Shown here piece by piece: positions 25,416-27,164 of a DNA stretch of 64,000 nucleotides. A model generated the notes under the pieces. The model ran no database searches. It saw only the letters and a program-made list of their open reading frames with translations, and had not been told where the DNA came from. The number at the start of each line of letters is the position of its first letter. The stretch's first letter is position 1. A program made the translations under genes and the position numbers. The DNA lies in contig DUVH01000009.1 in NCBI GenBank assembly GCA_012841145.1, forward strand, positions 25,296-89,295, given 5' to 3'. The DNA is from Clostridiaceae bacterium (GTDB taxonomy: Bacteria > Bacillota > Clostridia > Saccharofermentanales > DTU023).

Positions 25416-27164
25416 TTGTCCGATATAGCCGATATTGCAAATTTTCTTCAATCGTATAACGCGGCTCTCCGACAGGAAATCGCGGATTCGGATATGCCCT
25501 TTGGGCTGAAGGAGCAATTCATCTTTGACAGCCTGGAAAAAAGACAACCTGGACGCGAGGTCTATTTTGTAACTAGGAAGTTGGACGGTAAACGCGCCGT
25601 TCTTCGCATTACAGGCCCGGACAGCGGCGATAATGCCACTGCAGAGGCCGCAATACTTGCTAAACTGGATCACCCCGCCATTCCTAAAATATATGGAGCT
25701 TGGGAGTATAACGGACGCGGTTTCATTGTGCGTGAGTATTTTGAAGGTGATGATCTGGCCACTTATGTCCGAAAGCACGGCCCTCTGAGCTTTGAAATGT
25801 TGACAGATATAGCTCTCAGGCTTTGCGATATTTTGAGCTACATTCACGATCAGAGTCCTGCCGTTATCCATCGCGATCTTAAACCGGAAAATATCATTAT
25901 TTCCGGGAAAAACGATATTAAATTAATTGATTTCGGCATCGCGCGAGATTTTCGTCATGACATGGGGAGCGCGGAATACGAAAGAGATACGCGAGTAGCC
26001 GGAACAAGGCCGTATATGCCGCCTGAGCAATTCGGCAGTGAACAGAGCGATAACAGAGCTGACCTTTATGCATTGGGCGTGGTCATGATATTCATGGCGA
26101 CGGGAAAGCCGGATCGGCTGAACCTGAAAAGCGTTTACCCTTACAAGAGTTTAGTTCCTATTATTGAAAAATGCATACGGAAAGACCGCGACCAACGAAA
26201 TAAGACGGCGGCACAGTTAAAGAGACATATTCTTTGGGTAAAGCGAAGACTGACGAGTAAAATCCTACTATGCTCTGTACTAGGCGCTGCCCTAGTCGCC
26301 GTTTTCTTTTTAGGGCTTTTTGTTGGACGAACACAGGGCTTTCAGAGCGGCGTCAATTCTATTATGGACACTCCCGCTGTAAGAAATCAGCCGTTCACAC
26401 AGGAGGAATTGAATCAACCCGTCACTTTTACAAGTGAATATATTGATATGGCCGTACGGCTCGTACTGAACAAGGAAAAAGCCGATACGATCATCCGTAG
26501 CGAGATAACAAGCAGAATAGACGAGATATGCATATACGGGACATATGTCATCCATCCTTCGCTTGATGTTTCTCTAGTAAAAAATCACTTGGGTAAAGGT
26601 ACGGTCGAATATATGACAGACGATGGATTTTGCCCGCATCGTGGCGACATAAGCTCGCTTGATGATATACCGAACATGTACTATTTGCGAAAACTAACGC
26701 TAACCTCGCAAAATATATTCGATTTGTCGCCGCTTTCCGGCATGAAACTAAAGTCGATCAATTTGAGTGACAATTATGTGGGGAACCTTCTCCCGCTCAA
26801 GGACATGGTAATGCTGGAAGAGTTGGATCTTTGTCAAAACCCCTTGAAGGACTTGACGCCGATATCACGTTTGCTGTCGCTGGAATCGCTTGATATAAGC
26901 CAGACACAGGTGACAGACTTGAAGCCCCTAGCAGAGCTTACGAAGATGGAAACGCTGAAGATTGCTTATTGTGACGTGAAGGATATAAGTGTATTGGCAG
27001 GGCTTCCAAACTTGCGAGAGGTCGATTTAAGCAATACATCTGTTACGAACCTTTCACCGCTCATAAGGCAGGATAACCCCATAACAGTGTATTGCACAGG
27101 ACTTGCGGATGAGGTGATCGATGCCGTAAGAGATAACCCTAGAATAGTATTGGTTGAAGAATAG
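25416..27164 (+). CDS. Membrane Ser/Thr-protein-kinase-like protein with extracellular LRR domain
   Basis: Hanks-type motifs HRDLKPENIII, DFGIARDF, PYMPPEQ. One TM helix (ILLCSVLGAALVAVFFLGLFVG). C-terminal ~6 internalin-like 22-aa LRRs (L..L.LS.N.V.NLLPL...). TTG start with AAGGCGGTGA upstream. Confidence 0.8.
   Translation: MSDIADIANFLQSYNAALRQEIADSDMPFGLKEQFIFDSLEKRQPGREVYFVTRKLDGKRAVLRITGPDSGDNATAEAAILAKLDHPAIPKIYGAWEYNGRGFIVREYFEGDDLATYVRKHGPLSFEMLTDIALRLCDILSYIHDQSPAVIHRDLKPENIIISGKNDIKLIDFGIARDFRHDMGSAEYERDTRVAGTRPYMPPEQFGSEQSDNRADLYALGVVMIFMATGKPDRLNLKSVYPYKSLVPIIEKCIRKDRDQRNKTAAQLKRHILWVKRRLTSKILLCSVLGAALVAVFFLGLFVGRTQGFQSGVNSIMDTPAVRNQPFTQEELNQPVTFTSEYIDMAVRLVLNKEKADTIIRSEITSRIDEICIYGTYVIHPSLDVSLVKNHLGKGTVEYMTDDGFCPHRGDISSLDDIPNMYYLRKLTLTSQNIFDLSPLSGMKLKSINLSDNYVGNLLPLKDMVMLEELDLCQNPLKDLTPISRLLSLESLDISQTQVTDLKPLAELTKMETLKIAYCDVKDISVLAGLPNLREVDLSNTSVTNLSPLIRQDNPITVYCTGLADEVIDAVRDNPRIVLVEE

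Follow-up and report, generated by a model that had tools for sequence, protein, structure and literature searches.

A receptor kinase with leucine-rich repeats in a clostridial contig

The stretch of DNA analysed here (the window) comprises 64 kb of contig DUVH01000009.1 from a Clostridiaceae bacterium (assembly GCA_012841145.1). Its only kinase gene is found at window positions 25416–27164 on the forward strand and is a complete open reading frame (ORF) of 582 amino acids with a TTG start codon and a stop codon at 27162–27164. Its translation is the same, residue for residue, as that of GenBank HHX19025.1 ('protein kinase [Clostridiaceae bacterium]'), and a near-identical copy was found in a Saccharofermentanales metagenome-assembled genome (MAG). 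Bacterial Hanks-type receptor kinases are understood almost wholly through the PASTA kinases; the window protein belongs to a large clostridial family in which the kinase is joined to leucine-rich repeat (LRR) or β-propeller ectodomains, the nucleotide site is built differently from that of the PASTA kinases and the gatekeeper residue is an almost invariant arginine.

The protein is confirmed, from its sequence and predicted structure, as a genuine single-pass membrane receptor with a cytoplasmic Hanks-type kinase fold, one transmembrane (TM) helix and extracellular LRRs. This is the arrangement, with about six internalin-like repeats, that had been read from the letters alone in a first-pass annotation of the window, and it is borne out by Pfam, by hydropathy and charge, by an AlphaFold2 (AF2) model and by the number of repeats. 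The kinase fold (residues 28–265; 25497–26210) scored 129.4 bits against Pfam Pkinase (PF00069), past the gathering cut-off of 31.7 (E = 2e-37), and was also recovered by Foldseek and by the match of a family profile to PknB (see below). The sole hydrophobic segment of the protein is the TM helix (residues 283–305; 26262–26330). The 15 residues before it carry a charge of +6 (six Lys/Arg) and the 15 after it a charge of 0/−1 (no Lys/Arg); since the positive charge sits on the N-terminal flank, the kinase is inside and the LRRs are outside. In the AF2 model (42-sequence alignment, mean predicted local distance difference test score of 92), a single unbroken helix is predicted to begin with the final helix of the kinase and to cross the membrane (residues 265–318; 26208–26369), and the model has no flexible or disordered juxtamembrane linker.

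Homologue alignment and the model place an extracellular juxtamembrane segment, an LRR N-cap and a β-hairpin insert (residues 306–423; 26331–26684) ahead of six internalin-type 22-residue LRRs (residues 424–554; 26685–27077), which start at residues 424, 445, 467, 489, 511 and 533. LRR_4 was matched three times by Pfam, and the best solved-structure match of the repeats is InlA (E = 6.5e-44). A C-terminal cap follows (residues 555–582; 27078–27161), modelled as strands 556–559 and 577–580 with a helix at 565–570 between them, in which PxTVxCxG is conserved among homologues. The likeness to Listeria internalins is restricted to the 22-residue repeat type, the window protein having neither a signal peptide nor LPXTG; membership of the class 1 internalins was rejected on scores of 73 versus 1600 bits (NF033189) and 67 versus 1050 bits (NF033188). 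The ectodomain hairpin contains an RGD tripeptide (residues 409–411; 26640–26648) within RGDISSL, for which the family pattern is RG[DY]I.SL; the tripeptide is probably structural rather than of the integrin-binding type.

At the other end of the protein, AF2 predicts a family-specific helix (residues 2–23; 25419–25484), which is followed by an invariant Pro28. Its consensus, FLxxYxxxL...ADMP, is kept in homologues down to ~30% identity. Some gene callers use an alternative start at M27 (556 amino acids), while the TTG start was chosen by independent gene callers on nine metagenomic contigs and homologues start with an ATG-encoded MSD at the equivalent position. The 582-amino-acid form is preferred because the N-terminal helix is conserved and the ATG of the homologues stands at the matching place.

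The general plan is shared with the PASTA kinases PknB, PrkC and StkP, which are likewise single-pass proteins, with the N-terminus and the kinase in the cytoplasm and a sensor of repeats outside the cell; PknB is the closest solved kinase in sequence, and HRDxKPxN, DFG and PEQ are common to both. The differences are considerable: LRRs take the place of PASTA repeats, the Gly-rich loop is absent, Arg replaces the β3 Lys and the gatekeeper Met, an N-terminal helix is added, and the helix that is continuous in the AF2 model contrasts with the long disordered juxtamembrane linker of the PASTA kinases, which is phosphorylated in PrkC and StkP. Membership of the PASTA kinases (Stk1/PknB, NF033483) was rejected, as the score was 134 bits against a cut-off of 450, Pfam found no PASTA repeat in the 582 residues, and LRR_4 was matched instead. 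Plant and animal LRR receptor kinases also couple an LRR ectodomain to a kinase fold; however, their LRRs are N-terminal, and because the orientation is reversed in the window protein the kinase–LRR architecture arose independently.

The domain searches also returned models of anti-phage defence kinases, with PADLOC matches to PD-T4-6 (2.5e-46) and mad6 (7e-44) and an NCBIfam MAD6 score of 87 bits, and a defence kinase of the PD-T4-6 or MADS MAD6 type was accordingly considered. These matches are limited to the generic kinase core (residues 76–232), the MAD6 score is far below its cut-off of 460 bits, and a TM helix with LRRs and neighbours of housekeeping and surface-protein type are unlike PD-T4-6 or MADS systems. 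We rejected this identity and regard a defence role of that type as extremely improbable.

An N-lobe without the glycine loop and the β3 lysine

Single-sequence matches in Pfam, NCBIfam and the PDB begin only at residues 71–77. As this leaves the loop and β3 uncovered, a family profile was needed for the N-lobe, and a profile of 21 family kinase domains was searched against the PDB. It aligned with Mycobacterium tuberculosis PknB (3F69 and others) at E = 8e-44, free of gaps from profile position 22 to the αC helix, and the elements of the AF2 model (β1 35–44, β2 47–54, β3 60–66, αC 74–82) agree with this register. The three GxGxxG positions (G18, G20 and S23 in PknB) are occupied by K42, Q44 and R47, so that the 'G-loop' K42-R-Q-P-G-R47 (25539–25556) has no Gly at any of them and the GxGxxG pattern is absent. 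V62 takes the place of the Ala of PknB VAVK, an adenine-pocket residue. Arg64 (codon cgc, 25605–25607), inside the modelled strand 60–66, aligns with PknB K40. The first-pass annotation had called both the Lys-to-Arg change and the degenerate loop from an alignment by eye and had proposed a profile alignment as a check; this alignment upholds the two conclusions and puts no Lys at β3, whereas the by-eye register of the loop was one residue off.

The remaining catalytic motifs are present, those reported earlier as intact (HRDLKPEN, DFG and the P-E pair) included. They comprise the αC glutamate E77 (25644–25646), at the position of the salt-bridge partner of the β3 Lys, the catalytic loop H152-R-D-L-K-P-E-N159 (25869–25892) with the HRD Asp D154 and the Asn N159, and an activation segment (25929–26027) that extends from D172-F-G, with the DFG Asp, to P203-E204, with the APE Glu, and includes an invariant D191-T192 (25986–25991). 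D191 aligns, tentatively because a 3-residue gap is nearby, with PknB T173, which we take to be an activating phosphorylation site, and this hints at a built-in phosphomimetic in the activation loop.

According to the definition used in an atlas of bacterial Ser/Thr kinases (STKs), a pseudokinase has a substituted β3 Lys, HRD Asp or DFG Asp. The window protein is thus a pseudokinase by sequence through Arg64, yet its pattern of conservation looks enzyme-like, as the following counts indicate.

Family size and conservation

A homologue search covering 5.8 billion proteins gave >100 clusters (90% identity) in which kinase, TM helix and LRRs are laid out in the same way. The sources are MAGs of Clostridiaceae, Oscillospiraceae and Eubacteriales, and the identities range from 99% to 28%. 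In a sister set the same kinase is fused to a DUF5050 β-propeller ectodomain. When 1.8 billion cluster representatives were searched with a profile and the matches filtered to single-domain proteins of <1000 amino acids (multi-kinase proteins topped the list by summed scores), 96 further members were added. The earlier description of an LRR sensor as unusual therefore stands in comparison with the characterised PASTA kinases but not in the sequence databases, where LRRs are common for this kinase type in Clostridia. No paper on bacterial LRR-ectodomain Hanks kinases was found among open-access publications, and LRR ectodomains are not mentioned in the available parts of the STK atlas and its companion review on bacterial pseudokinases; this large family of clostridial receptor kinases is thus absent from the literature searched.

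Conservation was counted in 217 full-length members aligned on the family hidden Markov model (29–100% identity to the window protein, median 41%). All 217 have a kinase and a TM helix, mostly with LRR or DUF5050 ectodomains, and at least three LRR motifs follow the TM helix in 150 of them. R153, D154, N159, D172, D191, E204, D216 and R261 are conserved in 217/217, K156 and T192 in 216/217 each and E77 in 211/217; the αF Asp and PEQ belong, together with HRDxKPxN and DFG, to the strictly conserved C-lobe features. The N-lobe is a different matter. At β3, Arg (120) and Lys (91) predominate over His (4), Leu (1) and Gln (1), and the complete K/D/D triad is found in 42% of the family; the Ala of VAIK is replaced by Val or Ile. 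The three GxGxxG positions hold no Gly in 174 members, one in 35, two in 8 and three in none.

These counts bear on whether the domain could be a nucleotide-free dead scaffold that anchors partners at the membrane, as EssB/YukC and the pseudokinase domain of MviN do. Loss of the β3 Lys, and with it the status of pseudokinase by sequence definition, would suit such a role, as would a Gly loop degraded as in YukC. The scaffold pseudokinases of the companion review (YukC, MviN), however, lose HRD and DFG and shorten the activation loop, and HRD and DFG are conserved here in 100% of the 217 members. Because the catalytic loop, DFG, the αC Glu and the P+1/activation segment are strictly conserved over wide divergence, we find a scaffold of this kind very unlikely.

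The atlas and the companion review, in the parts available, describe seven pseudokinase families, two of which, ActPs2 and DYD, resemble the window protein in their conserved β3 Arg and their membrane association; nucleotide binding is predicted for both. ActPs2 differs in its HRD Asp-to-Asn change, its DFG deletion and its large insertions, whereas the window protein keeps E77, D154 and DFG. DYD also occurs in Firmicutes and retains HRD. Membership of DYD was nonetheless rejected on two defining features, since E77 and DFG are both kept, and the window protein fits the definition of neither family.

Fitch parsimony on a neighbour-joining tree gave at least three switches between Lys and Arg at β3, in addition to changes to His, Leu and Gln, and Lys and Arg interchange without loss of any other catalytic residue. 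On this tree Arg64 is a clade-level state which would have arisen more than once on an unchanging catalytic core, and the Lys-to-Arg change is best read as a tolerated clade variant and not as decay. The K/R/H/L series at β3 on a fixed core amounts to a ready, natural mutational series on the need for the 'invariant' lysine.

Basic residues in the loop also differ between branches. The clade of the window protein comprises 82 sequences, of which 99% have Arg or Lys at position 47 (R 70%, K 29%) and 89% a basic residue at position 42; in the branch with Lys at β3 the figures are ~30% for position 47 and ~20% for position 42. Five relatives with His or Leu at β3 all retain K42 and R47. The pattern fits a side-chain phosphate clamp. 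Such compensation would not be a strict rule, because DUF5050-type relatives with Arg at β3 are often without a basic residue at 47.

WNK kinases, which keep two loop glycines and have Cys at β3, offer a possible parallel, one that the first-pass annotation had raised as an alternative to a pseudokinase or scaffold. They too are without the β3 Lys, and a basic residue occupies the equivalent loop position in the window protein (R47) and its clade (Lys in 29%); as the pseudokinase review also mentions, WNK kinases such as WNK1 carry their catalytic Lys at the third of the loop's Gly positions instead. In the window protein, by comparison, position 47 is Arg, as it mostly is in the clade, and β3 is still basic. 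Foldseek of the AF2 model against PDB kinases returned a flat list (E about 1e-14) headed by WNK3 with bound AMP-PNP; its margin over many other kinases is negligible and its rank is therefore no evidence for a WNK-like mechanism.

One locus illustrates how members of this family can be clustered. At L005/L006 (625–4512), a 1295-amino-acid fusion of a GT2 glycosyltransferase, a kinase domain and a DUF5050 β-propeller lies directly upstream of a DUF5050 protein and a member of the LRR-kinase family, so that several paralogous receptors stand side by side.

An arginine gatekeeper shared with VPS15

The gatekeeper of PKA lies in the motif VMEYVPG. The corresponding motif of the window protein, VREYFEG, matches this as well as PknB VMEYVDG, and its Arg106 (25731–25733), aligned with PknB M92 by the family profile, is therefore the gatekeeper. 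The residue is Arg in 214 of the 217 members, the others having Lys, Leu or Tyr (1 each). For comparison, gatekeepers were recorded in 80 bacterial kinases among the matches listed in a scan of contigs with generic kinase patterns: Met was found in 51, Glu in 10, Gln in 8, Thr in 6, Leu in 2, Ser in 1 and Arg in 2. Both kinases with Arg (L010, L011) are members of the present family, the only ones among the matches listed, so that Arg occurs in 0/78 of the non-family kinases listed. In the available text of the STK atlas, Met is the predominant bacterial gatekeeper and the only one discussed, and Arg is not mentioned.

A full-text search of the open-access literature found no Arg gatekeeper other than that of VPS15 (PIK3R4), which is described as 'unique in the kinome' in a cryo-electron microscopy study; the conservation of Arg106 contradicts that statement. 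According to the same study, the gatekeeper Arg of VPS15 recognises guanine and forms a pair with the DFG Asp, its combination with a P-loop that has lost Gly at positions 3 and 6 leads to tight GTP binding, and this Arg gatekeeper is incompatible with ATP. The window protein has this very combination, namely R106 and the loss of Gly at positions 3 and 6 (Q44, R47). With a VPS15 sequence whose agreement with the numbering of the paper was established at T35, F38, R103 and D166, hhalign placed R106 on VPS15 R103; the alignment (E = 1e-9 over the C-lobe) indicates similarity at the level of the superfamily only. VPS15 is a soluble, myristoylated eukaryotic protein with HEAT and WD40 domains, and neither its architecture nor its place in the PI3KC3 complex has a counterpart in a kinase–TM–LRR protein; orthology was accordingly rejected. 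The conserved Arg gatekeeper, the most unusual feature of the protein, had escaped the first-pass annotation. In its light the issue is less whether the kinase is dead or alive than which nucleotide it would use.

If adenine were the answer, the protein would be a conventional ATP-dependent Ser/Thr kinase in which Arg64 stands in for the Lys, the side chain of Arg106 is directed elsewhere than into the adenine pocket (e.g. to Glu77) and the odd loop is tolerated. All catalytic residues of the C-lobe and the αC Glu are conserved, the best sequence matches are the active kinases PknB and StkP, and the top Foldseek match is to a kinase with bound AMP-PNP, albeit with a score inseparable from those of many other kinases. 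On the other side stand the 174 members without Gly at any of loop positions 1–3, the incompatibility of the VPS15 gatekeeper with ATP and the predominance of Met among bacterial gatekeepers, both in the atlas and among the control kinases listed. An ordinary ATP kinase consequently appears improbable to us.

Another unusual gatekeeper was encountered in the scan. A second group of Firmicutes and Actinomycetota kinases has Glu at this position (IEEF/LEEF), no Gly-rich loop and mostly Lys at β3. It includes L015, L016, L019, L023, L027, L036, L038, L057 and L060, with the kinase at about 6001–6700 in each, and examples are from Faecalimicrobium dakarense, Otoolea muris and Senegalimassilia.

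A possible nucleotide-dependent receptor

The reading that we prefer, while holding it only tentatively, is that of a nucleotide-dependent receptor whose rebuilt N-lobe would still support phosphate turnover or transfer, with Arg64 tolerated and Arg106 setting the base preference by analogy with VPS15. The cytoplasmic kinase fold and the extracellular LRR domain would be joined by one continuous helix, and binding of a ligand to the LRRs could alter the oligomeric state or the orientation of that helix. The kinase domain would read out this change while binding a Mg-nucleotide and turning over or transferring its phosphate. The phosphates might be held by K42, R47 and R64 in place of the amides of a Gly loop and a Lys, and the base preferred would plausibly be guanine.

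Several points weigh against such a receptor. Replacement of the β3 Lys by Arg is the classical kinase-dead mutation. VPS15 itself presumably keeps the Asp, Lys and Asn of the catalytic loop, and also the DFG Asp, so that conservation of these motifs falls short of proving protein-kinase activity. No PP2C phosphatase, FHA gene or conserved partner was found among the genes examined in the window and in homologous loci. The authors of the VPS15 study argue, moreover, that with Arg at the gatekeeper the DFG Asp is rotated and the γ-phosphate brought out of line, which would make phosphotransfer to protein impossible; carried over to the present family, this logic would render it non-catalytic. 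On the first of these points, there are precedents for nucleotide binding with Arg at β3 in KSR1 and EphB6, in addition to the predictions for ActPs2 and DYD in the review of bacterial pseudokinases.

The main rival reading is that the family acts as a non-catalytic switch of the VPS15 type, which would bind GTP tightly through Arg106, hydrolyse it slowly at most and signal by conformation or as a scaffold, no substrate being phosphorylated. The exact match in gatekeeper and loop and the hhalign placement of R106 on R103 (in the VPS15 sequence aligned) argue for this, and drift at β3 among K, R, H, L and Q is what a relaxed catalytic role would lead one to expect. The analogy, however, is between residues that converged in distantly related proteins, and the VPS15 sequence used was tied to the published numbering at four positions. 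Furthermore, GTxxYxxPEQ and D191-T192, in the P+1 loop and the activation segment, are invariant, as is typical of enzymes with peptide substrates, and the complete K/D/D triad persists in the 42% of members mentioned above. We consider a pure switch somewhat unlikely, though well worth keeping in view beside the nucleotide-dependent receptor that we favour.

A more far-reaching proposal, which we regard as doubtful at present, is that, VPS15 apart, no earlier kinase-fold family has a conserved Arg gatekeeper and that the members of the present one are bacterial guanine-nucleotide-dependent receptors, either GTP-switch pseudokinases wired to an LRR sensor or 'GTP-specific protein kinases', which the VPS15 study argues evolution has not produced. 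Whether Arg at the gatekeeper re-codes the kinase fold from ATP to GTP as a general rule could be examined simply in this family.

Genomic context

Housekeeping genes upstream of the kinase give way to a block of lower G+C at ~19–36 kb (0.39–0.47 versus 0.50–0.55 on either side) with two LRR surface proteins, a peroxiredoxin, the kinase, a 994-amino-acid ORF, a C11 peptidase and two ABC exporters. The block (19000–36000) may be an accessory island. The arrangement recurs only in near-identical contigs. Around homologues of 67, 57 and 35% identity the flanking genes are different ones, although most of them again encode secreted or surface proteins with LRRs or β-propellers. A conserved operon partner was rejected, as the neighbours differ in P0015, P0051 and P0076.

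The two LRR surface proteins (19615–21816 and 22195–24318, both +) are paralogues with long near-identical middle stretches, Cys-rich EndoS-type LRRs, acidic EPEPEP linkers and a C-terminal hydrophobic anchor. A common origin of their LRRs with those of the kinase was rejected, the similarity being generic (E = 0.006) and the LRRs of a different type. The first-pass annotation had suggested a host- or surface-interaction theme shared by the kinase and its neighbours; this is left without specific support, because synteny is limited to near-identical contigs and the LRRs of the neighbours are of another type.

The 994-amino-acid ORF (27342–30326, +) begins 178 bp downstream of the kinase gene, and no terminator separates the two. 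Its N-terminus resembles that of a lipoprotein (LAAC); it matches nothing in Pfam or PADLOC and is unrelated to the protein encoded downstream of the homologue P0015. Around the kinase gene, no intrinsic terminator or convincing promoter scored above shuffled controls. A 217-amino-acid ORF on the opposite strand (25218–25871, −) overlaps the 5′ end of the kinase gene and the intergenic region; it is probably spurious, having been left uncalled by the gene callers examined. YbeY and Era are usually encoded by separate adjacent genes; at 6692–8104 (+) a single ORF of 470 amino acids combines a YbeY endoribonuclease, an Era-type GTPase and a KH domain.

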